A stretch of DNA of 64,000 nt from an uncultured virus (IMG/VR IMGVR_UViG_3300028920_000066) (Duplodnaviria; Heunggongvirae; Uroviricota; Caudoviricetes), in the IMG/VR virus record IMGVR_UViG_3300028920_000066; one strand, 5' to 3'. Below the pieces are notes generated by a model. That model did not search any database. It worked only from the letters and a program-made list of their open reading frames with translations, and had not been told where the DNA came from. Of this stretch, positions 6,528 through 45,402 are shown one piece after another. Every line of letters starts with the position of its first letter. Position 1 is the stretch's first letter. Made by a program: the position numbers and the translations under genes.

Positions 6528-6725
6528 CTATTCTAAAAAAGCTGTCAGCTTTAAGCGTTCAACTTTTATTATTTCACCGAGCTGAGCTATTTCATAATTT
6601 TTTCTTTTATTAAATATTTTATTTTCAGCTTGTTTTTTGGTAGATGCTTTGACTAAAAAAAGATGGTCGTCACTAAACTCTTCGTGTAAGGTTTCGACCT
6701 CAATAAGAAAATAATTGGACTTCAT
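6528..6725 (-). CDS. hypothetical protein
   Basis: 65 aa ORF, ATGA overlap with groES. Confidence 0.65.
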   Translation of the reverse strand: MKSNYFLIEVETLHEEFSDDHLFLVKASTKKQAENKIFNKRKNYEIAQLGEIIKVERLKLTAFLE

Positions 6726-7027
6726 TTCGATTCTATGGCAATTATATCTGCCACTTCTATCATAAGATATTGCGTTTTTGCTTTATCATCATCCCGAACT
6801 TCTGACCCCGTATACTTAGCAACTAATACTATGTCACCTTTCTTAAAGTCTACAGGTTCAACTCTCGAACCCCAGTCAATGATTTCAGCTTTAGGTAATT
6901 CATTACTCATTTCTTTTACAGTTGACGGAACTATAATGTCCCCAACTTTATTCATTTCTTCTTTCTTTTCCTGATTCTGGTCTAAAGGTTTGACCATAAT
7001 CTTACTTCCAACAGGTTTAATTTTCAT
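6722..7027 (-). CDS. groES: co-chaperonin GroES (Cpn10)
   Basis: MKIKPVGSKIMVK..GDIIVP..KKGDIVLVAKYTGSEV..YLMIEVADIIA; GAGGAG RBS. Confidence 0.9.
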   Translation of the reverse strand: MKIKPVGSKIMVKPLDQNQEKKEEMNKVGDIIVPSTVKEMSNELPKAEIIDWGSRVEPVDFKKGDIVLVAKYTGSEVRDDDKAKTQYLMIEVADIIAIESK

Positions 7028-7052: not shown

Positions 7053-7271
7053 AAATAAACAGCAAGAGAAATATGAAATAGGAATTTCCTTATTCACGAT
7101 TAAGGATTCGGCTGGGCTTCACCCTGCTTTGTGTCTATTTTAAGGTAAGACATAACCACGTCATTTCTGGTTCTCCTTTCGGAAAAACAAGTTTTGACAT
7201 TCGTCTGATAGTTGACGCTGAGTGTTAGTCAGCTTCGAAGTAACCCATTCCTCACTACTTACCATTTATTT
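7053..7271 (-). ncRNA. Y-RNA-like unit 6 (about 219 nt), multi-hairpin non-tRNA cargo
   Basis: terminal stem AAAUAAAUGGUAAG/CUUGCUGUUUAUUU (G-U pairs only on the minus strand), UAGUGA, GGAAUGGG/CCUAUUUC helix, UUACUUCG. Confidence 0.8.
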
Positions 7272-7275
7272 ATTT

Positions 7276-7459
7276 TTTAATGAGAGAAACACGTGATGGG
7301 GATTGCCCTCTAACGGTGGCGAACCGATAAGGTAACGCTCCTTATTCTTCCTCATTAAGGTCGGAATAACCCTGCTCCCATTTCCCTTTCAGCCTTTGGC
7401 TTACTCGGTGAGAGCTTCTCCAATTGTCGAAGTAGCCCATACACTCACTACTCATTAAA
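7276..7459 (-). ncRNA. Y-RNA-like unit 5 (about 184 nt), non-tRNA cargo
   Basis: terminal stem UUUAAUGAG/CUCAUUAAA, UAGUGA, GUG-U-AUGGG/CCCAUCAC helix, CUACUUCG. Confidence 0.8.
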
Positions 7460-7470
7460 TCTCTGTTTTT

Positions 7471-7607
7471 AAAAATTGGGAGAAAGCCGATAAGGGAACA
7501 CACCTTTCGGTGTTTGGTGGGAATTGAACCCACGACCTAAACTTTATAAGAGTTTTGCTCTACCAATTGAGCTACGAAGTAACCCTGTATCTCACTACCC
7601 AATTTTT
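7471..7607 (-). ncRNA. Y-RNA-like unit 4 (about 137 nt) carrying D, anticodon (UAU) and T arms in normal tRNA order
   Basis: scaffold plus UAGCUCAAUUGGUAGAGCA, AAACU-CUUAUAA-AGUUU, AGGUC, GUGGG-UUCAAUU-CCCAC; no acceptor stem. Confidence 0.85.
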
Positions 7608-7610
7608 TCT

Positions 7611-7622
7611 ATTAAAGAACAA
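7611..7622 (-). promoter_or_regulatory. second boxA-like antitermination element inside the RNA array
   Basis: TTGTTCTTTAAT between units 3 and 4; resembles rrn boxA TGCTCTTTAACA. Confidence 0.55.
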
Positions 7623-7631
7623 TTTATTTTT

Positions 7632-7769
7632 AATGTGGAGAAAACCGAGAAGAGAACGTTAGTGCCTTTTCCAATTAGGCTATTCCCCCTCTTGGTGGGG
7701 GAAGTAGGATTCGAACCTACAATCTCTGCATCCAATTTGCGAAGTAACTCTATCTCTCACTACCACATT
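7632..7769 (-). ncRNA. YrlA-like Y RNA (unit 3, about 138 nt) with a circularly permuted tRNA module
   Basis: scaffold, then T arm GUAGG-UUCGAAU-CCUAC, closed acceptor stem UUCCCCC-ACCAAGA-GGGGGAA, D arm GCCU-AAUUGGAAA-AGGC; adjacent to Ro60. Confidence 0.88.
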
Positions 7770-7780
7770 TATTTATTTTT

Positions 7781-7909
7781 AAAGTGGAGGAAACCGATAA
7801 GGGAATTGTTTGTATCCCCCGTAGGGGACATTTTTAGGGTTTGAACCTAATAAAAAACTTTTTGTAAGTTTTTATTAACCGAAGTATCCCTATATCTCAC
7901 TACCACTTT
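7781..7909 (-). ncRNA. Y-RNA-like unit 2 (about 129 nt), degenerate tRNA-like cargo
   Basis: scaffold, AU hairpin, T-arm-like UUAGG-UUCAAAC-CCUAA, and UGUCCCC-UACG-GGGGAUA hairpin. Confidence 0.8.
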
Positions 7910-7913
7910 TATC

Positions 7914-7993
7914 TTATGGGAGAAAACTTACGAGAGTTCTTTTTAAAATTTTTCACGAATTTTCGAAGTATCTCTTCGTATCACTACCCATAA
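7914..7993 (-). ncRNA. Y-RNA-like unit 1 (about 80 nt), minimal scaffold
   Basis: UUAUGGG/CCCAUAA stem, UAGUGA, UACGA-A-GAG/CUCUCGUA helix, AUACUUCG, short AU-rich insert. Confidence 0.8.
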
Positions 7994-8055: not shown

Positions 8056-9567
8056 TTACAATTCTACTTTCTTAATCTTGTTGACAAGTGCTTTCTTATC
8101 CTGTTCTAACAACTTCATCATATCAAACACTTTGTCGCTAAATCCAGCAAGACAGTAAACCTGATTCTCTGGAAACTCAAGCGTTCCATATCCTGCTAAG
8201 TCAAAAGAATACAAGTGAGTTCCTACGCCATACTTATCTTGGTAGGTTTTGAAAGCTTTTGGAGCGGTTACTCCTGAGCTTCCCCATCCCCAACTTGTTT
8301 CTTTCCAACCCTGCATATCCGACATCAAAATTATTCTGTCATATTTCTTTTTAGCTCTTGTGAACGGATATCCAAAGTCTGTTCCACCACCGTGATTATT
8401 CTTAGCAATATGTTCTGTGATTGTCATCACGGAATCTTTTGGATTCACATTAACATATCTTGCGTCATCAGAAAACATTAAAAAATCACAGTTATTAGTT
8501 TTCACAAGCACAGCCGCAAACAACGCCCCAATTTCAATAGGTGTCTGTTTATCTCTATCACCATATCCAAATCCACCCATAGAACCAGAATCGTCTAATG
8601 CAACTAACATACTTCCGTCAAACTTAGGAACATTATTAAGAGAAATTTCTACAGCGTCATCGATAGCAACCATTATATCTCTTGCTCTGTCCAGTCTACT
8701 ATTCTTAAACTCTTTATAAGCAGTATAAAATCTGAAAGGCAATACAAGAGATTTCTTGATTAGCTTCTCGTCCCTTAACATATCAAGAGCCTTATCAAGC
8801 ATATCAGGTGACTGCTCTGCAATATTTCTTAAATTTCTTAAAAGAGCAAAGTATCCAATCTTTCTTGTGCCTACAAGTTCTTTCCAAGCGTCAGCCTTAA
8901 ACTTTTCTTTCTCTTCCTCAGTCTTAGCTGTTTGACCAGCCTTTGTCAACTTAGTTTCCCAAGTTCCATCTGAAGAAAGTTTATTGTCTACAACAAGCTT
9001 TTTTAAAGCCTCAGCGTTCTTTTCTGTAGGTCTTGGTCTTACAAGATTGATAGCGTCAAGTAAAGATACTTCTTTTGTGCCACCCTTATATTTAGCAATT
9101 TGATATGCGTCAAACTTATCAAAAGCTTTAGCAAGACCTTTCTTTAAAGCATTAGGAAGAACAGCTCTCTTCTTATCTTTACTGTATTTATCAAAATAGT
9201 TTGCAAGGATTTCTGTGATATCATCTGTTCTGTAAACTACTTTATTAAAGAAAGATTTACCCCAAGAAACACCCTGTCCTTTGATTTCATTAGCAATTAT
9301 TGAAGCAAGAGCGTGAGTAATAGACCTCATACCAAACTCAGTTCTTGCATAGATACCAGCCTTAGCACCAAATGATAAGTCAGGAAGCTTCTTTACAACA
9401 GCTTCTAACTGTTTCAAAGCTGTTCCAGAATCCCTGTAATACTGGTCTTTCACAAAGCTGGTTAGTAATAAAGACACTAATTCCAACTCTGGACTTTCCT
9501 TGTAAGATTTTCCACCTGCAAGGTTAGTAGTTTTTGTTCCTGCTTTCTTTTTGTTGAATTTGCTCAT
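8056..9567 (-). CDS. Ro60/Rsr RNA-binding protein (TROVE + vWA domains)
   Basis: TTNLAGGKSY, YARTEFGMRS, FDAYQIAKY, TWETKLT, IGYFALLRNLRNI, LVLPFRFYTAY, MIDAS DDSGSM, GGGTDF, SDMQGW; start at MSKFNKK after AGGAGAGG. Confidence 0.95.
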   Translation of the reverse strand: MSKFNKKKAGTKTTNLAGGKSYKESPELELVSLLLTSFVKDQYYRDSGTALKQLEAVVKKLPDLSFGAKAGIYARTEFGMRSITHALASIIANEIKGQGVSWGKSFFNKVVYRTDDITEILANYFDKYSKDKKRAVLPNALKKGLAKAFDKFDAYQIAKYKGGTKEVSLLDAINLVRPRPTEKNAEALKKLVVDNKLSSDGTWETKLTKAGQTAKTEEEKEKFKADAWKELVGTRKIGYFALLRNLRNIAEQSPDMLDKALDMLRDEKLIKKSLVLPFRFYTAYKEFKNSRLDRARDIMVAIDDAVEISLNNVPKFDGSMLVALDDSGSMGGFGYGDRDKQTPIEIGALFAAVLVKTNNCDFLMFSDDARYVNVNPKDSVMTITEHIAKNNHGGGTDFGYPFTRAKKKYDRIILMSDMQGWKETSWGWGSSGVTAPKAFKTYQDKYGVGTHLYSFDLAGYGTLEFPENQVYCLAGFSDKVFDMMKLLEQDKKALVNKIKKVEL

Positions 9568-9633
9568 AACTTCACCTCTCCTGTTTAAGTGCCCGTCCCT
9601 GTAGTTGGACACCGAATATCTATCTTGTATATA

Positions 9634-9662
9634 ATCTTATCAAATTTATAAGTTCTTGTCAA
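9634..9662 (-). promoter_or_regulatory. sigma70-type promoter of the Ro60/Y-RNA/groES unit
   Basis: TTGACA (9662-9657), 17 bp, TAAGAT (9639-9634) with extended -10 TG. Confidence 0.8.
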
Positions 9663-12223: not shown

Positions 12224-15200
12224 TTACCACTTCCAAATAAATTTTTTCACATCAATATCTTTTATCCTATCGTTTAAAGAATTGCTTGTATCCTCTTTAG
12301 GCTTATCTTTTAATATCCTATTCTCGTCACCAATATACTGACGCTTCAAGGGTTTATCTTCTTTTATACTACCATCTCCAGTTTCTTCTACAGAAAGGTC
12401 TGCTATATCCTTTACAAGAGTATCGTCTTTAAGAAGCTCCTTTATTTTTTCTTTAGTTGTTTTACTTTCTAACTGACTTAATTTGTCTTTTTTCTTTTTC
12501 TTTTTATTCTTTTTAGGCTTTAAGTATTGCATTACATTATCTATATTCCACCTAAAATAATGTTCTTGTGCAGTATTATCTTCTTCACTACCATCATAAA
12601 CTTCTGTGCTCATCATATTAGCTTTTATATCAAACCTTTCGTCCTTTGGATTTATATAATAAAAATCATTTAATATAAATTCAGTATCTGGTTCTACACC
12701 CATTCCTGCTTCTGGCAAAACAACACTCCCAGGCTTACCGTCCAATTCTTTACAAGCTTCTTTTGTCACATAGGCTAACGTAATATGTGGTTTATAATCT
12801 TTATATGTTGTAATATGTTCAAATTTATCCGAAACATTTTTATGTAGTTTATGTAAATCCTCTGATTCTACTTCTATGATAATCACATCATATGGTTTCT
12901 GGTCATCAGAAAATCTTGATAAATTACCAAATTTTATATTAACAGGATTTACCAAACCTAATATCTCATCTGCATTATGTTCTTTTAAACCATATAAAAC
13001 TGTAGCGTGTATTTCGTTTTCACGACCAAAACCTTTTTCTTCAACATATAAATCTTCATCTTTAATAGTCTGTTTAGCAAAATTTCTTATACGTTCAGCT
13101 ATTTCTATAGGTAGCTCTACCATTAAACACCCATATTTTTCTTCTGCACATATTGAATGTTTTATATTAGCTTCCACTACGTCTTTATTAAATGTAGTTA
13201 CTGCTATCTTATGTATAGCGTCCCTAAAAGCTCTTTCGTCTTCTTCCCAAGCGTCATCATTTTCATCGTCTATATATAAATTATTCTTTTCCCAAGTATC
13301 CGAACATAATTCTATATGAACCTGTTCTCTTTCGTCCTCAAATTTTTGCCAATCTTTTGTAGACCATCCACCCAAAACTATATCGGCATACTTCTTTAAT
13401 AAGTCCATATCTATTTTAAGCTCTCCATTATCAAACATCTTAACATATTCATCAACCTTATACCCCGTCACGTCTTTAACCTGCGTAGATTCTTTTATCA
13501 TTGTTTCTGAGTGCTCTGGATACTTATTCTTTTTAAATCCCATACCCTTATACCATTTCTGTAATTTTTTCTTATTACCACCAAAATCTCCTGACGGAGT
13601 AAGCGTTACAACAAGACCGTGCTCTTTGGCATAATCAAGAACTAAATCCATTACTTGTGTGCCTATACCTTGTTGCCTTTCTTCTTTAGGAACAAGTATT
13701 TTATTAACCGTTATAGCTTTCGTGCTTGGGTGATAAGTAGTCCACAAAGTCACATTAGGATATTTCTCTTCTACTAACTTATCCAACTCCTCTATATTAA
13801 CCTCCGAAGAGTTTACACCTTTTTTATTAAGAGTTTTTATACTCAAGTCTATCCTAAAATCATTATCTTTAAATTCATCCCACGTATTATAAATAAGTTT
13901 ATCTCCATAATCCATAACAATAAAATCTTTTGGTGCATATTCTGTTATCAATTCTTCAGCTTTTGTAAGGTCTACCCCAGCCTTACATTCAATGTTAGCT
14001 GTTTCTTCATAAAACCAAAACCTTATCCAACCGTCACGTATCATATTATTAAATGTTTCTGAAGTTGTCGAACCTATTTGTGTATACTTTTTAACAATAT
14101 CTAAATTTTCGTCTATCCACCAGCTATGCGTTTCAGGAACTCCCTCATTCCTAATATTAAAATCTGTGCCATCAGGGGCTATCCAATAAGCACTTCCTAC
14201 CGCGGCATAAACATATCTTAAATTACTTGCTGGTTGTTCAAACATATCCTTTACTCCCCACACCTTAACGTCTTTACCCTCATAAGTTTTCTCTTCTATT
14301 TTATTTACTGCTGTTAGTTTTCCAAGCGTCACAGGTTTATCATCTTCTAACTCGTTTTCTAAAAATTTATCTAAAGCGTCAAAATCTGTTTTTGAACTAA
14401 ACATCACATTAGTTCCATAACTCCATTTTCTTATACGAGCCCAACCACCTACAACCATTCTATCTAATATATCAAATGGACTTGCTTCATACATATCATA
14501 CTTTTCATATACTTCTATGTCCTTATTAGAAAGATATGGTTCAACGTATTCCATATTTTCAGCTTCCAAAACCCATTCTGCGTGAACGTCCCCCACTTCT
14601 ATTACTTCTCCTTTAGGTGTTATAAACCACCCAGCTATCATCTCTGCCTTTATTTTGCTACCAAATATTTTATCCCAAGTAGTATTATAACTTTTATTTA
14701 AAGTTAAGTCTTGCAAATTATAACTATCCATTATAATACTATCACCACTTTTTCCAATGTCCCCCATTAAAGGTTTTATTTTTTCTATAGCGTCCTTTCT
14801 ATTCCCATAATAATTGACACCCCAATAATTCATATCGCTTAATCTTACAGCTATCCAACCGTCTTTTAACATTTCTGCTATAACATCAGCAAGAGCATAA
14901 TACATTTTATTATCATATAGTTTTATCTTTTTATTATTAACCATATCCATCTGTTCATCTGTAAAATATTGTGACAACTCTTCAGCGTTGTCATATATCC
15001 AAGCTCTATGGTCATCCTTGCCCCATTTACCCAATTTAATATATGAGCTATCAGGCTTTACCCAATAGCCCTGACCTGGCATATCAGAAGCTTTTACATT
15101 ACTTTGTATCTCTTCCAGCCACGTTGTCTTATCTTCTAAATTTTTCTTACCCTCGTCAATGACCTTATATAAAAAGTAATAATCGTGATTATCTATATCA

Positions 15201-17080
15201 AATATTTCATAGTTGCCATAATTCTCGGTTATCTTTATCTTTGTGCCTACTGGAAGTTCTTTATATAATATAACATCTTCTATATCATATGGGTCATCTG
15301 GGTCTGGCTCTGGGTTCTCCCCCCAATAATGAACCATTAACGGTTTAGTTACTTCTACCATCGTGCTACTTGCTTTTACATATTCTTCTTCTATCATTCC
15401 TGTTATCGCAAGTCTTACTGCGTGATTAACATCAGGAATTTCTCCAAAGTCACTATAATCAGCCATATCTAATTGGCTTAAAAGACCGTGCTCTTCTAAA
15501 AGGGTCATAAGCCATTCAATATTACCTGCCGTTGCTTTACTTGTGCCTACTCCTAACAGTTCTGATAAATATTCGTGCTGAGTTTCTCTTTCATAATCAT
15601 CACTTAATCCCTTTTCAACTTTCTCTATTATCTTTTTATATTTATAAAACTCTTTCCAAAACTTTTTCCAATTAACTTTTGGAAATTCTTGGTTCTTTAT
15701 TAAGCTTTCTATAAAAGAAAAAGCGTCTTGTCGTGATGATTTAACTTTCTTGTGGTCTTCTACTATCTTATTTATCTTTTTTAATATTGCTTTACCCCAT
15801 TTACCATTATAAGGAACATTAACTGCTCGGTCATCAAGAAATACTAATGCTGTAGAAGATTTCTCATTTGTTATCTTATCATAAGGCACTTCATTCTTAT
15901 CCAGCAACTTCTTTATCTTATCCCTGTCCTCTTTACCTCTGGCTGTGAATATAACTATCTTCCAACCATCTTCTTTTAACTCCTTTAATATCTTCACATT
16001 TTCTTCTATTAAATCTTTTGAACCAGTATAAGGATAATTATCAACAGCAAGAGTTCCGTCAAAATCTATACAGATTTCTTTCTTTCCAGCATTGATTATA
16101 ATCTTTGATTTTATATCTTTAATAAACTGCAACGCATAACCGTGAACAGCGTCCCTTAAAGGTTCTGTCAATACAGCGTCATATATGTGTTGATAAGGGC
16201 TATCTTCACCTATAAGTTCATTATAAAGAGCCTCATTGTTTTCTATAATCCACATCACTAACTCTATATGTTTATCGCTTCTTAACTGGTCGAATTTTTC
16301 AAACTCATCATCAGAAGCCTTTTCTACATTTTTAACAGCATTTACATAATCTGTTAATAATTTTTCATCAACTTTAAGTTCACCACGATTAAGTCTATAT
16401 TCATAATCTTCTACCTTTTTCTTATGCTCTTCATAATTACCTATCACAGACAGACTGTGAACCTCATACATAAACTGGTCAAAGTCTTCGCCAAAGAACT
16501 CGGCTGGAATTTGGTCAGCCATTTCAAATATTTGCTGGTCAGTAAGATTAGGGTTATTTTTCTGAATATTGATTTTTAATTCGGTGTGTAATCTTTGACG
16601 TTCCTTTTCAAGCTCTTCTAAAAGTTCTACATTATATTTAGAGTTCATCATATTATTAAGGTGTGTAAGATATTTATTAAGAACTTCCTCATCTATCTTA
16701 ATATCGCTTATGGTTATTGCCTTACCATAAACATTACCAAATGCGTCTTCTACATATTCATAATCTTTAAGTGCATCTTCCACAACAAACTGTTTAGCAT
16801 AATGATGCACAGCGTCCCTAAAATCTAAATCATCTAAATCATATTGTTTGTTTAGTTCTGGATTTAATCTCAAAAAAGCTTCCGTAAGTTTGTCGTGTAG
16901 GTCAACTCTATGTAAATCTATTATGATAAGTTCTTTTGTGTTATATTCTTTTTTAGCATAATCGTTTTCTTCTTGCCAAACAGAAATATATTCTTCTAAT
17001 TCCTTTTCTGGGATTTTTATTTTATTACTGTTTAGTTTTCGTAAAATTTGTTTACTATTAGAAGTTATTTTATTTTTTAG
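12224..17080 (-). CDS. polyvalent protein: helical repeats, HAD phosphatase, three W-x-x-P-x-G repeats, GNAT, Acb1-like 2H phosphoesterase; probably the -1 frame continuation of the GGDEF gene
   Basis: frame is open from 17080, upstream of the tracked TTG at 16873; DFDGTL/FTARG/FLDDRAV, VPKEERQQGIGT, HATVLY...HITLAY. Confidence 0.85.
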   Translation of the reverse strand, partial: LKNKITSNSKQILRKLNSNKIKIPEKELEEYISVWQEENDYAKKEYNTKELIIIDLHRVDLHDKLTEAFLRLNPELNKQYDLDDLDFRDAVHHYAKQFVVEDALKDYEYVEDAFGNVYGKAITISDIKIDEEVLNKYLTHLNNMMNSKYNVELLEELEKERQRLHTELKINIQKNNPNLTDQQIFEMADQIPAEFFGEDFDQFMYEVHSLSVIGNYEEHKKKVEDYEYRLNRGELKVDEKLLTDYVNAVKNVEKASDDEFEKFDQLRSDKHIELVMWIIENNEALYNELIGEDSPYQHIYDAVLTEPLRDAVHGYALQFIKDIKSKIIINAGKKEICIDFDGTLAVDNYPYTGSKDLIEENVKILKELKEDGWKIVIFTARGKEDRDKIKKLLDKNEVPYDKITNEKSSTALVFLDDRAVNVPYNGKWGKAILKKINKIVEDHKKVKSSRQDAFSFIESLIKNQEFPKVNWKKFWKEFYKYKKIIEKVEKGLSDDYERETQHEYLSELLGVGTSKATAGNIEWLMTLLEEHGLLSQLDMADYSDFGEIPDVNHAVRLAITGMIEEEYVKASSTMVEVTKPLMVHYWGENPEPDPDDPYDIEDVILYKELPVGTKIKITENYGNYEIFDIDNHDYYFLYKVIDEGKKNLEDKTTWLEEIQSNVKASDMPGQGYWVKPDSSYIKLGKWGKDDHRAWIYDNAEELSQYFTDEQMDMVNNKKIKLYDNKMYYALADVIAEMLKDGWIAVRLSDMNYWGVNYYGNRKDAIEKIKPLMGDIGKSGDSIIMDSYNLQDLTLNKSYNTTWDKIFGSKIKAEMIAGWFITPKGEVIEVGDVHAEWVLEAENMEYVEPYLSNKDIEVYEKYDMYEASPFDILDRMVVGGWARIRKWSYGTNVMFSSKTDFDALDKFLENELEDDKPVTLGKLTAVNKIEEKTYEGKDVKVWGVKDMFEQPASNLRYVYAAVGSAYWIAPDGTDFNIRNEGVPETHSWWIDENLDIVKKYTQIGSTTSETFNNMIRDGWIRFWFYEETANIECKAGVDLTKAEELITEYAPKDFIVMDYGDKLIYNTWDEFKDNDFRIDLSIKTLNKKGVNSSEVNIEELDKLVEEKYPNVTLWTTYHPSTKAITVNKILVPKEERQQGIGTQVMDLVLDYAKEHGLVVTLTPSGDFGGNKKKLQKWYKGMGFKKNKYPEHSETMIKESTQVKDVTGYKVDEYVKMFDNGELKIDMDLLKKYADIVLGGWSTKDWQKFEDEREQVHIELCSDTWEKNNLYIDDENDDAWEEDERAFRDAIHKIAVTTFNKDVVEANIKHSICAEEKYGCLMVELPIEIAERIRNFAKQTIKDEDLYVEEKGFGRENEIHATVLYGLKEHNADEILGLVNPVNIKFGNLSRFSDDQKPYDVIIIEVESEDLHKLHKNVSDKFEHITTYKDYKPHITLAYVTKEACKELDGKPGSVVLPEAGMGVEPDTEFILNDFYYINPKDERFDIKANMMSTEVYDGSEEDNTAQEHYFRWNIDNVMQYLKPKKNKKKKKKDKLSQLESKTTKEKIKELLKDDTLVKDIADLSVEETGDGSIKEDKPLKRQYIGDENRILKDKPKEDTSNSLNDRIKDIDVKKFIWKW

Positions 17081-18240
17081 TTTTTTTTTCTACTCTCTAT
17101 TTCTTTTGGCGTTTCGTCATCACAAGTTTCACACTCTTCATTCTTCGTCAAATCCTTGCCGTCATCTGTGTGAGCCTCACAATCCATACCCTCTTCATAT
17201 TCCACTACCATATCACGCCCACCCTCTTTAGCACAATATAAAGCTTTGTCCGCTTCTTTAAATACTTCTTCTGTGCTTTCAGTTTCTTCATAGCCCGTGA
17301 ACCCAATTGATACAGAAATATTAAACCCATTTTCAAACTCAAGTGTTTTAACTTTTTCTCTTAATTCGTCAAGAAAAACTTCTGCTGTCACACTATCATC
17401 AGCAGGTAATAATAATATAAATTCTTCCCCTCCCCACCTGAAAGCAATTGTTTCTTTGTCCAGCATACCACCTAAAGCCTTAAGCACTTCATCCCCCACA
17501 TCGTGCCCATAAGTGTCATTAACGTCTTTAAAATGGTCTACGTCTATGATTGCAAAATACAAAGACTCATCGTCTAAATCTTCTACCACTAAGTCAAAAG
17601 CATTACGATTATATAATTGAGTAAGATTATCTCTCAAAGCAAGGTCTTTCCAATATTCAATATCTTTATCTTTATCTTCATTCTTTATGTTCTGCTCGTT
17701 CTCTTCGTCAGCTTTAATGTTCTCTAAAACTCTATACTTATCTTCACCTAAATATTGTATGTTGATATATGATTTATCTATTATATTAGTAGCGATAGTT
17801 TTGTCACCACCACCTCGCCAATCTTCTACCTGATATCCAAGCTCTGCTAACTCAAGTTCAGAATATACTTTGTTTGCACACACCAAGTTTCGTGCATTAG
17901 CTTCTTCGATTGTTTCCTCTATGATAGCTTTCTTCTCTGGGTCTTTTTCTGTTTTAAGCATATCCTCTAATTCACATACCGTATGCTCTATTAAAAACTC
18001 AAAATATTTATAAGACTCTTCTTCGGTCATATTAGATTTCACCTTTTTAATATGGTATCGTGGTTCTTCTGCTTCATCTTCTCGAATTGTTTTATCTCTA
18101 CTTCTCATACTCGGTTGAAACTCATCTAATAATCTTAAATAAACAGTATCTCCACCAGAACGAGTAAACCTTTCACGTATTCTATAGTCTATACCGTCAT
18201 AGTTAATATAATTTCCAGGGTCGGTATTTTTAGCTTTCAT
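17077..18240 (-). CDS. GGDEF diguanylate cyclase with N-terminal unknown domains
   Basis: DNLTQLYNR, IIDVDHFKDVNDTYGHDVGDEVL, RWGGEEF, ADKALYCAKEGGRD. Confidence 0.92.
   Translation of the reverse strand: MKAKNTDPGNYINYDGIDYRIRERFTRSGGDTVYLRLLDEFQPSMRSRDKTIREDEAEEPRYHIKKVKSNMTEEESYKYFEFLIEHTVCELEDMLKTEKDPEKKAIIEETIEEANARNLVCANKVYSELELAELGYQVEDWRGGGDKTIATNIIDKSYINIQYLGEDKYRVLENIKADEENEQNIKNEDKDKDIEYWKDLALRDNLTQLYNRNAFDLVVEDLDDESLYFAIIDVDHFKDVNDTYGHDVGDEVLKALGGMLDKETIAFRWGGEEFILLLPADDSVTAEVFLDELREKVKTLEFENGFNISVSIGFTGYEETESTEEVFKEADKALYCAKEGGRDMVVEYEEGMDCEAHTDDGKDLTKNEECETCDDETPKEIESRKKN
17080..17089 (-). other. A9 slippery site (AGA AAA AAA AAC TAA), putative -1 frameshift
   Basis: A AAA AAC heptamer in frame 0; the -1 frame has TAG immediately before the run and is then open for about 4.9 kb. 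Confidence 0.75.
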
Positions 18241-40521: not shown

Positions 40522-41565
40522 TTACGCCTCAAAAAACTCCATAATTTTTTCTTTTGTGATATATTTAACAGCGAGGTCATATCCTTTTTGCATCTGTTCT
40601 ATGTTTCCAAATTCTAAAGCACTACCTGTTGATTCATCAGGATATAACTTTAAAAATTCAACTGTTGGATATTCATCAGAAACTTCTGCAAGACGTTGAT
40701 AAATTTCTATTGCCGTCCACATTTTTTGTTCAAAGAAATCCATAGCAACTTGTGGCATCCTTGCCCCTACACCAAAAACATTGTCTGCTACTTTTTCATC
40801 TGCTTTTGTTTTAGGGTGTGTAGCAACAACAATTATTTTTGTTGCCCCACGTCTTATAGCTGTTCCAACAGGGTCATTATTTCCAAAACCACCGTCAACG
40901 TGTAAGTGTCCTCTTCCTGCTCCAATTCTTGGTGGAAATGCTAAAGGAATAGCAGAAGTTCTTTTAGCTAATTCTTCGCACCCTAAATCACAATTATCTT
41001 TTGTGTAAACGTCTTCTTCTATTTGTGAAATATCTGTAGCAGTAGTAACAACGTCAAGGTCTTTAAAATCTTTAAGAGTAAGACCTTTAAATTCTCGGTC
41101 GCATATAGAATACAAACCTGTAGGTCTTAAAATACTTTTAGACCCGTTATCCTTAAAGGTTTGTCCGATGATTCCCATAAAACCACCGATACCACCTTTA
41201 ATTTCCCCCTCATAAACGTCTTTATTACAAGTAATTCCACTCCACATCAAAAGAGCTTTTTCAAATTCGTTAATATATTTTGCTATTGTTAAACCATTAA
41301 GCCCTCCTACTGAAGTTCCTGTAATACCTGTAAGACATTTTAAAAGACCTATTTGCTGTAGCCAAGCAACAGCTCCAATTTGCCACCTACCACAAGCACC
41401 ACCACCTGGTAAAACTAAATAAATCTTTTCTTTCTTTTTAATTTCTTCAGCTTCTGTTAATACATCAAATTGATTTTCAATTTTTTTAAGCTGAATTGCT
41501 ACAGGTTTTTCTTCTTCTTTCTTTTTAAAAATGTTACCAATCCAATCTGTTAAAAAGAATCCCAT
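40522..41565 (-). CDS. patatin-like phospholipase
   Basis: GGGACG oxyanion loop, GTSVG nucleophile, SAIP..FPP, VDGG. Confidence 0.9.
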   Translation of the reverse strand: MGFFLTDWIGNIFKKKEEEKPVAIQLKKIENQFDVLTEAEEIKKKEKIYLVLPGGGACGRWQIGAVAWLQQIGLLKCLTGITGTSVGGLNGLTIAKYINEFEKALLMWSGITCNKDVYEGEIKGGIGGFMGIIGQTFKDNGSKSILRPTGLYSICDREFKGLTLKDFKDLDVVTTATDISQIEEDVYTKDNCDLGCEELAKRTSAIPLAFPPRIGAGRGHLHVDGGFGNNDPVGTAIRRGATKIIVVATHPKTKADEKVADNVFGVGARMPQVAMDFFEQKMWTAIEIYQRLAEVSDEYPTVEFLKLYPDESTGSALEFGNIEQMQKGYDLAVKYITKEKIMEFFEA

Positions 41566-43044: not shown

Positions 43045-45402
43045 TTATGGTGATATCCTACGCATAATCATTATTCCTGTTACATACATTCTTTCACTTG
43101 TATTTTTAGGAAAAGGCACGGTGCTTCTAAAACTTACTACTCCAGAACCAATTAAATGTGGTGTTATAGCTACAGGATATGTTCCAAACCCGTAATTATT
43201 TTCTACTGTTCCCAATGATGTGTGAGTTGCTATTGAAACAATTTCATATTTAGACCCGTCCCAAGTTACACTTCCCTCACCTTTACCAGTAGTTCCTGGT
43301 AAATAACGCAAGTCCGCTTTAAAAGCCCATAACTCCCAGTTGTCTGTTCTTCCACTATTGTCGCCACCAACTCCAGCACCATCTCCGTGAATATTTAATC
43401 CACCACTAATAGGTATTTTATGAATTATTGTTTGTTCTAAACTTTGATTTCCAATTTCTGTTCTAAAATCATCATTTGCCTGTTCGTTAAATATGTCTTT
43501 AGAAGTTAATGTCGCTGGAACTTTTTGACTATAATTTATAGAATCTGTTCCATAATATGCTGATTTAGGAAAAATAGATACAAGCGTAGACGCTCCCCAA
43601 GAGCCTCTAAAATATAATCTTAAATTTCCTGTATTAAAATCCATATTAAGTTGTGTCGTTCCATTATTTTGTAATGGGGGGAAATAACTTTGACCACTAC
43701 CAGTTTCAATAACTTCAAGATAACCGTCTGTAGCAGGGTCATAATTTGTAACATATATTGCACAATTAAAAACCATTTTATCAGAAGATGGAGGGTTTGC
43801 AGTAAGATTAAAATTAAGAGTAACATATTCATTAGTTTGTATATTACTACATTGAAACCCATAATTTATTCCATAAACATTTGTTCCACCTACTCCATTT
43901 AATCCTACAAAATGATTATAAATATTATCAACAGTATCTGTTTCAATCCATTGACTTGGTCCTGTAAAATATGCCATAGGAATTAAATTCTTATTATTTG
44001 CAACTCTACTTGTTTCACTTGGTCTTATTTTTTCATAAGACGTATTTGTTGTGCCCAAACCTATAATAGGTTGTATCTGGTCAGGGTTTGAACCAGCATA
44101 TCCCTCGTGAACTCTAAGCTCACAATTACCACCACTATTTAACCACCATACATATCCTAAAGTAACACCTTTATCTAAAACGTTATCAAATCTAATATCA
44201 CTTGCTAAAGTTGAAACAAACACAGATTTTAATGTTACATAATCTGTATCGTCTAATCCATCGTGGTCAAAATAAATTCTATACCACCCCTCATCAGGAT
44301 TAGCTCCACCTCCATTACCATCGCCACTAAAATTTAATCTTACAGCACTTATACCCGAATCAAAAGGTTCTGCATTACTTAAACTAAATACACGTCCGTC
44401 AGAATGAACTTCATAATTTGCATTTCTATCTAAACGAATATAATGTTCATCAGCAGGTAAATCACCTGAATTAAATTTATTTGTAATTTGTCTTGCAGTT
44501 TCTAAAACTTGTTGCTGAGAATTAGTTCCTACACCCGTTTTATATACTATACCATTAGAAATAATACGGCTATTCTCTGTAAAACTATCTCTCTCCATTC
44601 CACCAGTATGTAAAGAATTTACCCCGTGTGGGTTTTCTGGTCTTATAAGTTTATCGCCTAAAGCGTTAATATGGTCTTTTAAAGTAGTTTCTGTTCCGTC
44701 CGTATATTCAGACGGTGAAGCCGAACTATCTACTTCTATATTTACGCTTTCTTGTTTTATACCAGCATAATTTCTTTCAGGGGCAGTTGCTGGATTATTC
44801 ACATCGTCATAAAAAGTAAGAACTGTTCCAACTTTATTTATTCTTCCTAAATATAGAACATCAGCAGGGGGTTGGGCAGAGTTATTAAATCTAATAATAA
44901 TTCTATATCCCTCGTGGGTTTTTGGATAAAACACCACTCCGTCCTTATTAACAGCAGTAAAAACAGAATCTTTAAGATTTTCATATCCTATCCATATATA
45001 ATAATCTCCATCACCAGAAGATAATGGTATTTGAATATTTCCTTGATTTTGAAATTCAGTAGGAGTAGTTTTATATGTTTCATTTGAAGCAATATAATAT
45101 AATCTTCCTCCAGCGTCTACAAAATACATAGCAGTCACACCAACTGAAGAAACAGGTATATCAAAATATAATCCTTGATTTGGTGTAGCTATATAATTTG
45201 TCTGGTCAAAAGCTACTAATTGGGGTTGTTTTAAAAACCCATATTCAAAATCGCCTAATGTGTTTTTAGGTATTTGTCTTATAATACCTTTTTCTAAATA
45301 TGCACCGACATAATTTCTAACATTATTAAACATCCACTCTTGCATATTATTCATATCTTGAACTGACACTCTACGTTTATTAAAAAACTCGTATGACCTC
45401 AT
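43045..45402 (-). CDS. putative tail fibre / baseplate-attached protein
   Basis: 785 aa beta-rich; N-terminal FFNKRRVSVQDMNNMQ, internal HINA..NPHGV. Confidence 0.6.
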   Translation of the reverse strand: MRSYEFFNKRRVSVQDMNNMQEWMFNNVRNYVGAYLEKGIIRQIPKNTLGDFEYGFLKQPQLVAFDQTNYIATPNQGLYFDIPVSSVGVTAMYFVDAGGRLYYIASNETYKTTPTEFQNQGNIQIPLSSGDGDYYIWIGYENLKDSVFTAVNKDGVVFYPKTHEGYRIIIRFNNSAQPPADVLYLGRINKVGTVLTFYDDVNNPATAPERNYAGIKQESVNIEVDSSASPSEYTDGTETTLKDHINALGDKLIRPENPHGVNSLHTGGMERDSFTENSRIISNGIVYKTGVGTNSQQQVLETARQITNKFNSGDLPADEHYIRLDRNANYEVHSDGRVFSLSNAEPFDSGISAVRLNFSGDGNGGGANPDEGWYRIYFDHDGLDDTDYVTLKSVFVSTLASDIRFDNVLDKGVTLGYVWWLNSGGNCELRVHEGYAGSNPDQIQPIIGLGTTNTSYEKIRPSETSRVANNKNLIPMAYFTGPSQWIETDTVDNIYNHFVGLNGVGGTNVYGINYGFQCSNIQTNEYVTLNFNLTANPPSSDKMVFNCAIYVTNYDPATDGYLEVIETGSGQSYFPPLQNNGTTQLNMDFNTGNLRLYFRGSWGASTLVSIFPKSAYYGTDSINYSQKVPATLTSKDIFNEQANDDFRTEIGNQSLEQTIIHKIPISGGLNIHGDGAGVGGDNSGRTDNWELWAFKADLRYLPGTTGKGEGSVTWDGSKYEIVSIATHTSLGTVENNYGFGTYPVAITPHLIGSGVVSFRSTVPFPKNTSERMYVTGIMIMRRISP

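Follow-up and report, generated by a model that had tools for sequence, protein, structure and literature searches.

Previous reports describe the Y RNAs of bacteria and phages as encoded next to the gene for Ro60 (PMC4201824), with a terminal stem that binds Ro60 and another end that reaches partner proteins; Yrn1 of Deinococcus radiodurans, for instance, tethers Ro60 to PNPase (10.1101/312249). The YrlA class (RF02553; bacteria and mycobacteriophages) adopts a tRNA fold and is a substrate of the modifying enzymes TruB and DusA (PMC4201824). The Salmonella anticodon nuclease does not cleave YrlA, which has been put forward as a competitive inhibitor of that enzyme (PMC7790460), and in a Thermus phage the phage-encoded Ro60 binds two phage Y-like RNAs as well as the host PNPase (PMC12135203). 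Here we describe a Y-like RNA of another build, found in a stretch of 64,000 nucleotides (hereafter the window) from an uncultured virus of the Caudoviricetes (IMG/VR record IMGVR_UViG_3300028920_000066). It is the fourth (unit 4) of six tandem Y-like units at 7061-7991 on the minus strand, an array that lies between a Ro60 homologue and a GroES-like gene, directly downstream of the former and on the same strand. Ro60-linked Y RNAs that mimic tRNAs are known; what appears to be new is a whole, non-permuted tRNA body with a canonical and variable anticodon loop. With a probability of about 0.85 we take unit 4 to be a phage Y RNA in which the usual scaffold carries a complete class-I tRNA look-alike, its arms in normal order and its acceptor arm closed.

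A first-pass annotation, made from the letters alone, had recognized at 7471..7607 a Y-like RNA built around a non-permuted tRNA body. The feature is real; it lies on the minus strand inside that span (Table 1). D, anticodon, variable and T regions follow each other in the order of a tRNA, as found both by ARAGORN, which calls tRNA-Ile(tat) at 7509-7581 on the minus strand, and by the Rfam tRNA model RF00005 (55.3 bits, E 3.6e-9 in the 64-kb window, covering model positions 4-67 of 71 only). The residues of the tRNA elbow are present as a set (A14, G18, G19, U54, U55, C56, A58 and the pair G53:C61), and the extra hairpin that had been noticed past the T arm is there. So is the predicted lack of a canonical acceptor stem and of CCA: the would-be acceptor strands, UACUUCG and CAAACAC, form 3 of 7 pairs, whereas the window's true tRNA-Glu and tRNA-Gln have 7 of 7 and encode CCA. 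A pseudo- or truncated Ile-TAT call had been expected; ARAGORN reports an ordinary tRNA. Unit 4 has the cloverleaf arms of a functional tRNA, but not its 7-base-pair (bp) acceptor stem with free (N)CCA ends, and it has what is typical of a Y RNA, namely a Ro60 gene nearby on the same strand and a long terminal stem with a bulged helix.

With YrlA, unit 4 shares the position beside Ro60 on the same strand, the long terminal stem joined to a tRNA-like module, an acceptor-like arm that is closed by a loop and has no CCA, and D and T arms of the same type (GCUC...GAGC and GGUUCNANNCC) (PMC4201824, 10.1101/312249). As described in these reports, however, YrlA is circularly permuted (variable region, T arm, closed acceptor, D arm), and its Y stem replaces the anticodon stem, so that it is without an anticodon loop. 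In unit 4 the order is normal, the anticodon arm is complete and the Y stem joins the acceptor arm from the side. Because the order is not permuted, and because RF02553 gives no match to it even at E up to 10, unit 4 is not a YrlA member. The neighbouring unit 3 does match RF02553 in permuted order, which agrees with the earlier remark that the two units have opposite topologies. Going by the described order of arms rather than by sequence, D. radiodurans Yrn1 is closest in topology, in that its T and D arms are opposite in orientation to those of YrlA and a stem-loop lies between them at the position of the anticodon arm (PMC4201824). Yrn1 is reported to have partial D-loop features, a 6-nucleotide (nt) loop, no variable region and a less evident tRNA likeness (10.1101/312249), whereas all four arms of unit 4 score as tRNA and its anticodon loop has the canonical 7 nt. 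Thermus phage phiLo resembles the window in having a phage Ro60 with several adjacent Y-like RNAs (Yrl1/Yrl2), and the RNA binding by its Ro60 and the recruitment of the host PNPase may, by analogy, be a model for how the window array acts; Yrl1 and Yrl2 are stem-bulge-stem RNAs with a CGAA motif, and the available text on them mentions no anticodon or tRNA-body feature (PMC12135203). Our literature search returned no account of a Y RNA that combines a full D/anticodon/variable/T body with an anticodon loop both canonical and variable, some reviews of Ro60 and RNA repair lying outside the search and possibly describing such a variant. The nearest printed remark is the speculation that some tRNA genes beside the Ro60-like gene of phage Bas63 are Y RNAs (PMC11482910).

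Covariation supports every helix of this whole-tRNA Y RNA family, as far as can be judged from sequence. We built a covariance model (R1) from 31 distinct sequences and a hand-drawn structure, leaving out L040, which is a variant of L020 with a short duplication. The 35 best full-length matches to R1 (E up to 1e-12), five of which had not been used in building the model, served as the covariation set and are the family sequences referred to below. Standard pairs fill 93.5% of the cells, against 69.3% after shuffling, and none of 500 shuffles reached the observed value; when the 3' partners were slid by 1-3 columns, 35-49% of the cells were paired. Changes on both sides were found in 26 of the 32 pairs: in 4 of 4 in the outer stem, 7 of 7 in the scaffold helix, 2 of 4 in the D stem, 5 of 5 in the anticodon stem, 3 of 5 in the T stem and 4 of 4 in the capping hairpin, where only 74% of the cells are paired as aligned. 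The alignment was fitted to R1 and hence favors the structure, but the slid controls agree with it, as does a MAFFT-based RNAalifold prediction with compensatory changes in 16 of its 20 pairs. Moreover, a 143-nt stretch with unit 4 folds better than 200 of 200 shuffles (z -3.35), and its centroid contains the D, anticodon and T arms and the hairpin. The thermodynamic ensemble gives the arms moderate backing, with predicted pair probabilities of 0.58-0.68 for the anticodon stem, 0.59 for the D stem and 0.89-0.97 for the T stem.

Unit 4 departs from a tRNA in its acceptor arm. The first-pass annotation had put the scaffold in the place of the acceptor stem, and this was correct insofar that the canonical stem is gone; in the family, however, a UCG:CGA remnant and the capping hairpin form a closed acceptor-like arm, which the scaffold joins from the side. 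The last three bases of UACUUCG face a near-invariant CGA past the T stem (U:A in 27 of 35 sequences, C:G in 32, G:C in 27), and in two related sequences the G:C pair of the remnant has become U:A (UUCU...AGAA). Unit 4 reads CAA for CGA, giving a C.A mismatch, and so do L138 and L148. The loop of the hairpin is a GNRA tetraloop in 19 of the 35 (GAAA 13, GCAA 4, GAGA 1, GUAA 1); the hairpin is absent from five members, and in a further four the only candidates are dubious A/U hairpins. We infer that the remnant of 3-4 bp and the hairpin stack on the T stem as a closed acceptor-like helix of ~7-8 bp, with the scaffold entering sideways at a three-way junction. An arm closed by a tetraloop-capped hairpin would leave no free 3' end to charge in the RNA as transcribed, while the elbow and the canonical anticodon loop of unit 4 are predicted to remain exposed.

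The same geometry could also belong to a chargeable tRNA in two pieces. RNase P would cut the capped hairpin, CCA would be added, and the split molecule, aminoacylated while tethered to Ro60, would carry Ro60 (and an exonuclease bound to it) to ribosomes, or would decode, at the codon chosen by its anticodon, here AUA. For Mycobacterium smegmatis YrlA, which like unit 4 has a closed acceptor arm of tRNA length but which is permuted, cutting by RNase P and addition of CCA have been demonstrated (PMC4201824). The inferred stack of 7-8 bp would have the length of an acceptor stem, and its 4-nt loop that of NCCA. We nevertheless think a split tRNA very unlikely, since five of the 35 members have no hairpin to cut and since the scaffold would branch inside the acceptor arm, where RNase P and the synthetases bind.

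A nested subclass (L065:2540, L014:2540, L016:2241, L015:3425 and crAss-like units) has about six bases inserted after UACUUCG and contains a tRNA with a complete A/U-rich acceptor stem of 6-7 bp, starting at the G of UACUUCG. Two of its units, L065:2540-2691 and L014:2540-2690 (-), have the D loop AGCUGAUA and the T loop UUUGAAU, so that the elbow pair G19:C56 is replaced by A19:U56, a compensatory tertiary pair. Both have the anticodon UGG, G37 and a G3.U70 pair.

The link of the family to Ro60 was found without Ro60 being any part of the search. A scan of the viral collection with the pattern UACUUCG-NN-GC..GC..GGUUCNANNCC gave 60 loci; on inspection 36 of them show the complete design, and the remaining 24 are coding sequence or chance hits. 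A Ro60 gene is present in the 3-kb flanks of 26 of these 36 members, as against none of the 24 others. R1 matches over its full length, at 81.9 bits or more, in all 28 member loci scored; at E 1e-3 it has no match in the doubtful loci L028, L042 and L062, and it matches the window's true tRNAs in the tRNA core only. A decayed tRNA pseudogene, or a chance resemblance between repeats, would agree with the broken acceptor stem and with the fact that ARAGORN alone would call a tRNA. We rejected this explanation as extremely improbable; it is contradicted by the comparative data, namely the R1 score of unit 4 (128.4 bits), the covariation of the flanks, which repeats do not explain, and the presence of Ro60 beside the members and not beside the chance matches.

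Eleven viral contigs encode close or distant relatives of the window Ro60. The Y-like units of these contigs lie upstream of the gene and carry the same GAGWUACUUCG, including those of a G+C-rich contig whose Ro60 is 29% identical. One such contig (L002) has three units, of which the first is a short hairpin, another is of YrlA type and another is of the non-permuted tRNA type, its hairpin capped by GAAA. A pattern with the 5' loop included (GTAGTGA-N12-ACTTCG) had no match in 12 Ro60-relative loci, where the units have other 5' loops. The 634-kb uncultured phage L001, which encodes the closest relative (55% identity), has only short units within 4 kb. A blastn search of the array against 50,697 phage records returned five short tRNA-like matches only, and R1 found nothing beyond weak or tRNA-only matches in crAss001 and Rhizobium phage TM39. 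YrlA-type permuted units were also seen at L019:1786-1960 and L041:3291-3465, on contigs that each have two whole-tRNA units as well, on both sides of Ro60; as the two kinds share contigs, mixed arrays are common in this phage group.

In bacterial and archaeal genomes the same pattern gave at least 120 matches; among the 80 loci examined there were five members, at 88-107 bits, and Ro60 adjoins three of these, including one in a cultured Lachnospiraceae isolate. In that isolate (L120, a scaffold of Lachnospiraceae bacterium A4) the Y-tRNA unit, with anticodon UGG and G37, and Ro60 form a two-gene module that has a LytTR two-component system on one side and a serine recombinase gene on the other. 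The module may represent a small mobile island of this cultured gut bacterium. Of the many R1 matches that scored 40-65 bits over the full length of the model, most proved on inspection to be ordinary tRNAs with forced flanks and without UACUUCG, and we do not hold that the tRNAs of these clusters are for the most part Y-embedded. Existing annotations contain relatives under other names. In the crAss-like phage csAssE-Sib (OR575929.1) a tRNA-Tyr and a tRNA-Lys are annotated immediately before the gene of a 'Ro sixty-related protein', on its upstream side, and both are full-length R1 matches (51.0 and 76.1 bits), and in the crAss-like cr111_1 an annotated tRNA-Gln matches R1 at 60.3 bits. ARAGORN likewise calls many of the metagenomic members tRNAs. 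In Halovirus HGTV-1 (KC292026.1; L076) a feature of 132 nt at 1983-2114 is annotated as a 'tRNA-Asp (gtc) + intron', 3 kb upstream of a TROVE gene and near RtcB. It matches window unit 3 by blastn and has no R1 match, and it may be a Y RNA rather than an intron-bearing tRNA.

The anticodon loop is constant in shape and variable in content. It has 7 nt in 34 of the 35 family sequences, with U33 in 32 of the 34, a purine at 37 in all 34 and a pyrimidine at 32 in 32. The triplets are of 17 kinds: GCA occurs five times, GAU, UUG, AUC and CUU three times each, UAU twice (the window and L016), and others make up the rest. The emphasis that had been placed on UAU as a rare anticodon was therefore not justified; with so many triplets on the same chassis UAU itself is not notable, and in the related phage tRNA clusters examined ARAGORN calls five true tRNA-Ile(UAU), in L015, L019, L021, L058 and L061. 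Three observations argue that the units are not decoders. First, bacterial tRNAs for Leu, Ser and Tyr have a long extra arm, whereas in 8 of the 34 an anticodon for one of these amino acids sits on a body with a variable loop of 4-5 nt. Secondly, tRNAs with a full acceptor stem and the same anticodon occur in the same locus, with Cys-GCA in L014, L034, L045 and L065 and Lys-UUU in L041 and L029. Thirdly, A34 is unusual in bacterial tRNAs, and triplets with A34 (AUU and AUC) occur five times. Close relatives give no more than a hint of selection on the triplet. GCA is retained over 9-15% divergence; in one close pair, 11% diverged outside the arm, GAA has been replaced by UUU, in all three bases, with a change at one of the 14 other arm positions; and in another close pair the whole anticodon arm has been swapped.

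Several results weigh against our reading, and it should be interpreted with some caution. The minimum free energy structure of unit 4 as a single sequence is another fold (-35.9 kcal/mol against -27.4 kcal/mol for the proposed one, a gap of 8.5 over 130 nt), which is why the proposed structure rests mainly on the comparative evidence. UACUUCG is probably the Ro60-contact motif, with a CG core as in the published GNCGAA/CGAA motif (PMC4201824, PMC12135203), but GNCGAAN0-1G has no literal match in unit 4, which reads UACUUCGUA; UUCGA(A/C) can be read in three of the six array units and AUCGAA at the same place in one crAss-like relative, and the animal Y RNA counterpart of the conserved 5'-strand motif is given as GGUCCGA. 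The loci were sorted by eye into 36 members and 24 others, and R1 was applied to three of the 24. Among 49 open reading frames (ORFs) flanking 20 loci, a Pfam search found no RNA ligase, RtcB or nuclease family, and no recurrent partner gene. The comparison of close relatives comprises seven pairs from few lineages, and the diversity of anticodons is compatible with neutral drift too. Finally, UAU fits the phage's top isoleucine codon and would be equally suited to decoding: in 17 long ORFs ATA is used 478 times (58%), ATT 303 times and ATC 38 times.

The last of these points, together with the tRNA score, is what could be expected of a working tRNA-Ile(UAU) that reads AUA, the Y-like flanks being no more than a paired leader and trailer from which host RNase P and 3' processing would free it. 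Like an ordinary phage tRNA of this kind, unit 4 has D, anticodon, variable and T arms and an anticodon that matches the preferred codon; the window's true tRNAs, Glu-UUC and Gln-UUG, likewise match preferred A-ending codons, and the nested subclass has a full acceptor stem. Unlike such a tRNA, it has neither the 7-bp acceptor stem nor the CCA that the true tRNAs of the same window possess, and it is embedded in a covarying, Ro60-linked scaffold. In the family the capping hairpin and the scaffold are kept through compensatory changes, and the Leu, Ser and Tyr anticodons on short-variable-loop bodies and the true tRNAs of the same anticodon beside the units speak against decoding in the family as a whole. 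We consider a working tRNA distinctly unlikely.

Drift among the 17 triplets would also be in line with the tRNA fold being a nuclease-resistant cap that stabilizes the Y RNA, the anticodon arm being inherited baggage with no target of its own. The idea has been raised for YrlA (PMC4201824), and parts of the tRNA body are missing elsewhere in the array: unit 2 is without a D arm, and the anticodon-arm position of unit 6 is taken by a 72-nt insert. However, YrlA-type units fold stably without an anticodon loop, and both kinds occur in one array. Between 32 and 34 of 34 sequences preserve the loop length, U33 and purine-37, all five pairs of the anticodon stem covary, and the GCA lineage retains its triplet. 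On balance this too appears unlikely.

If unit 4 is a Y RNA with an intact anticodon loop, its scaffold presumably binds the Ro60 encoded just upstream. The array would be transcribed together with Ro60 and then cut into units, and each unit would be bound by Ro60 via its scaffold. The resulting ribonucleoprotein would present a tRNA mimic that bears no amino acid to a factor recognizing anticodon stem-loops. The likeliest such factor would be a host nuclease of defence or stress that cleaves tRNAs, or else an anticodon-modifying enzyme; the ribonucleoprotein would act either as a competitor of the real tRNA or as a tether between the factor and Ro60 with a partner exonuclease. As the triplet differs between phages, it may be tuned to the target; that of unit 4 would copy the decoder of AUA, the commonest isoleucine codon of the phage. 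The decoy idea fits the conserved shape of the loop and the printed precedent of YrlA (PMC7790460). We put forward this decoy or tether mechanism tentatively, as a possibility rather than an expectation; identity and mechanism taken together, we regard the account as likely to be the best explanation.

The gene content of the window is that of a phage (baseplate J, phage metallopeptidase, DNA polymerase III alpha, sliding clamp, DnaB, primase, RecA and RusA), and its G+C content is 32.5%. Among public sequencing runs the stretch was found in one DNA run, which may be its source, and in no RNA run. All six units of the array share a scaffold that runs from a variable outer stem through UAGUGA, one strand of the conserved UAGUGA/UUUCU loop, a helix (often with one bulged base) and the invariant UACUUCG into the module, and from there through CCCUUAUC-GGYUUYCUCC back into the outer stem. 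Across the array this one scaffold bears six different modules, which suggests that one Ro60 is served by several adaptors. The promoter-like site upstream of Ro60 may drive the gene and the array together. Six promoter-like sites were found, against 7.1 expected in shuffles, and no terminator-like site was found on the minus strand between 8056 and 7050.

Table 1. Positions of the Ro60 gene, the Y-like array and the parts of unit 4 in the window
Feature	Position	Strand	Evidence or remark
Ro60/Rsr homologue, 518 amino acids (aa)	8056..9612	-	Pfam TROVE E 1.7e-16, vWA_Ro60 E 3.1e-9; PHROG 850 RNA-binding protein E 3.4e-45
Sigma-70-like promoter match, TTGACA-17-TAAGAT, TG present, upstream of Ro60	9634..9662	-	consensus match only
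GroES-like gene, far side of the array from Ro60	6722-7027		
Unit 1: scaffold and short hairpin module, YrlB-like in size	7916..7991	-	same outer stem, UAGUGA, bulged helix, UACUUCG
Unit 2: scaffold, anticodon-like arm, T arm, UACG-capped hairpin, no D arm	7783..7907	-	R1 42.9 bits, full length
Unit 3: YrlA-type permuted tRNA mimic (T arm, closed hairpin, D arm)	7634..7767	-	RF02553 31.4 bits, E 1.5e-4, below the gathering score of 69
Unit 4: scaffold and complete non-permuted tRNA mimic	7474..7604	-	R1 128.4 bits; Rfam tRNA 55.3 bits; ARAGORN Ile-tat
Unit 5: scaffold, non-tRNA module, extra ~30-nt insert in 3' scaffold strand	7279..7456	-	scaffold motifs; weak fold, z -0.30
Unit 6 (ends approximate): scaffold, D-like arm, ~72-nt insert at the would-be anticodon-arm position, T-like arm, CGAA, hairpin	7061..7264	-	R1 31.9 bits, full length
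Unit 4, outer stem AAUUGGG	7604-7598	-	followed by UAGUGA
Unit 4, bulged helix GAUA-C-AGGG	7591-7583	-	bulge C7587, in the 5' strand
Unit 4, UACUUCG	7581-7575	-	followed by UA; motif common to all six units and the units of relatives
Unit 4, D arm GCUC-AAUUGGUA-GAGC	7572-7557	-	with A14, G18, G19
Unit 4, anticodon arm AAACU-CUUAUAA-AGUUU	7555-7539	-	5-bp stem, 7-nt loop, U33 and A37
Unit 4, anticodon UAU	7548-7546	-	
Unit 4, variable loop AGGUC		-	between anticodon arm and T arm
Unit 4, T arm GUGGG-UUCAAUU-CCCAC	7533-7517	-	followed by CAAA
Unit 4, CAA(A) acceptor remnant and capping hairpin	7516-7500	-	hairpin ACACC-GAAA-GGUGU at 7513-7500, followed by GUU
Unit 4, 3' scaffold strand CCCUUAUC	7496-7489	-	followed by GGCUUUCU
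Unit 4, outer stem 3' strand CCCAAUU	7480-7474	-	

Some other genes of the window deserve mention. About 2.6 kb upstream of Ro60 a multidomain ORF of 1549 aa (12224-16873, minus strand) has a HAD/PNK-phosphatase-like region (PHROG 415/1238, residues 263-371), a GNAT acetyltransferase (residues ~1045-1115) and a 2H phosphoesterase of the Acb1 / 2'-5' RNA ligase-like type (PHROG 755 'RNA ligase', residues 1284-1373); judged by these similarities it is a possible candidate for an RNA-end healing or anti-CBASS enzyme. A GGDEF diguanylate-cyclase-like protein (E 1.3e-31; 17077-18240, minus strand) and a patatin-like phospholipase (E 4.5e-17; 40522-41565, minus strand) are candidate signalling or counter-defence genes. 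ARAGORN also calls a tRNA-Leu(tag) at 44073-44152 on the minus strand, within an ORF of 785 aa (43045-45402). Rfam makes no such call and CTA is rare (32 uses), and the call is probably a false positive.

The family has consequences for how phage genomes are annotated. Since ARAGORN and the annotations of two crAss-like phages call such units tRNAs, phage tRNA counts and codon-adaptation analyses near Ro60 may be inflated. The Ro60-adjacent member in the cultured Lachnospiraceae isolate and the relatives in crAss-like phages are possible bench systems. The role of the tRNA-like module in bacterial Y RNAs has been an open question since 2014, and YrlA, being without an anticodon loop, offers few experimental handles. 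A Y RNA of the type of unit 4, with a canonical anticodon loop whose triplet varies between phages and sometimes copies that of an adjacent true tRNA, offers a direct and mutable one, and the triplet could predict the target in each phage.

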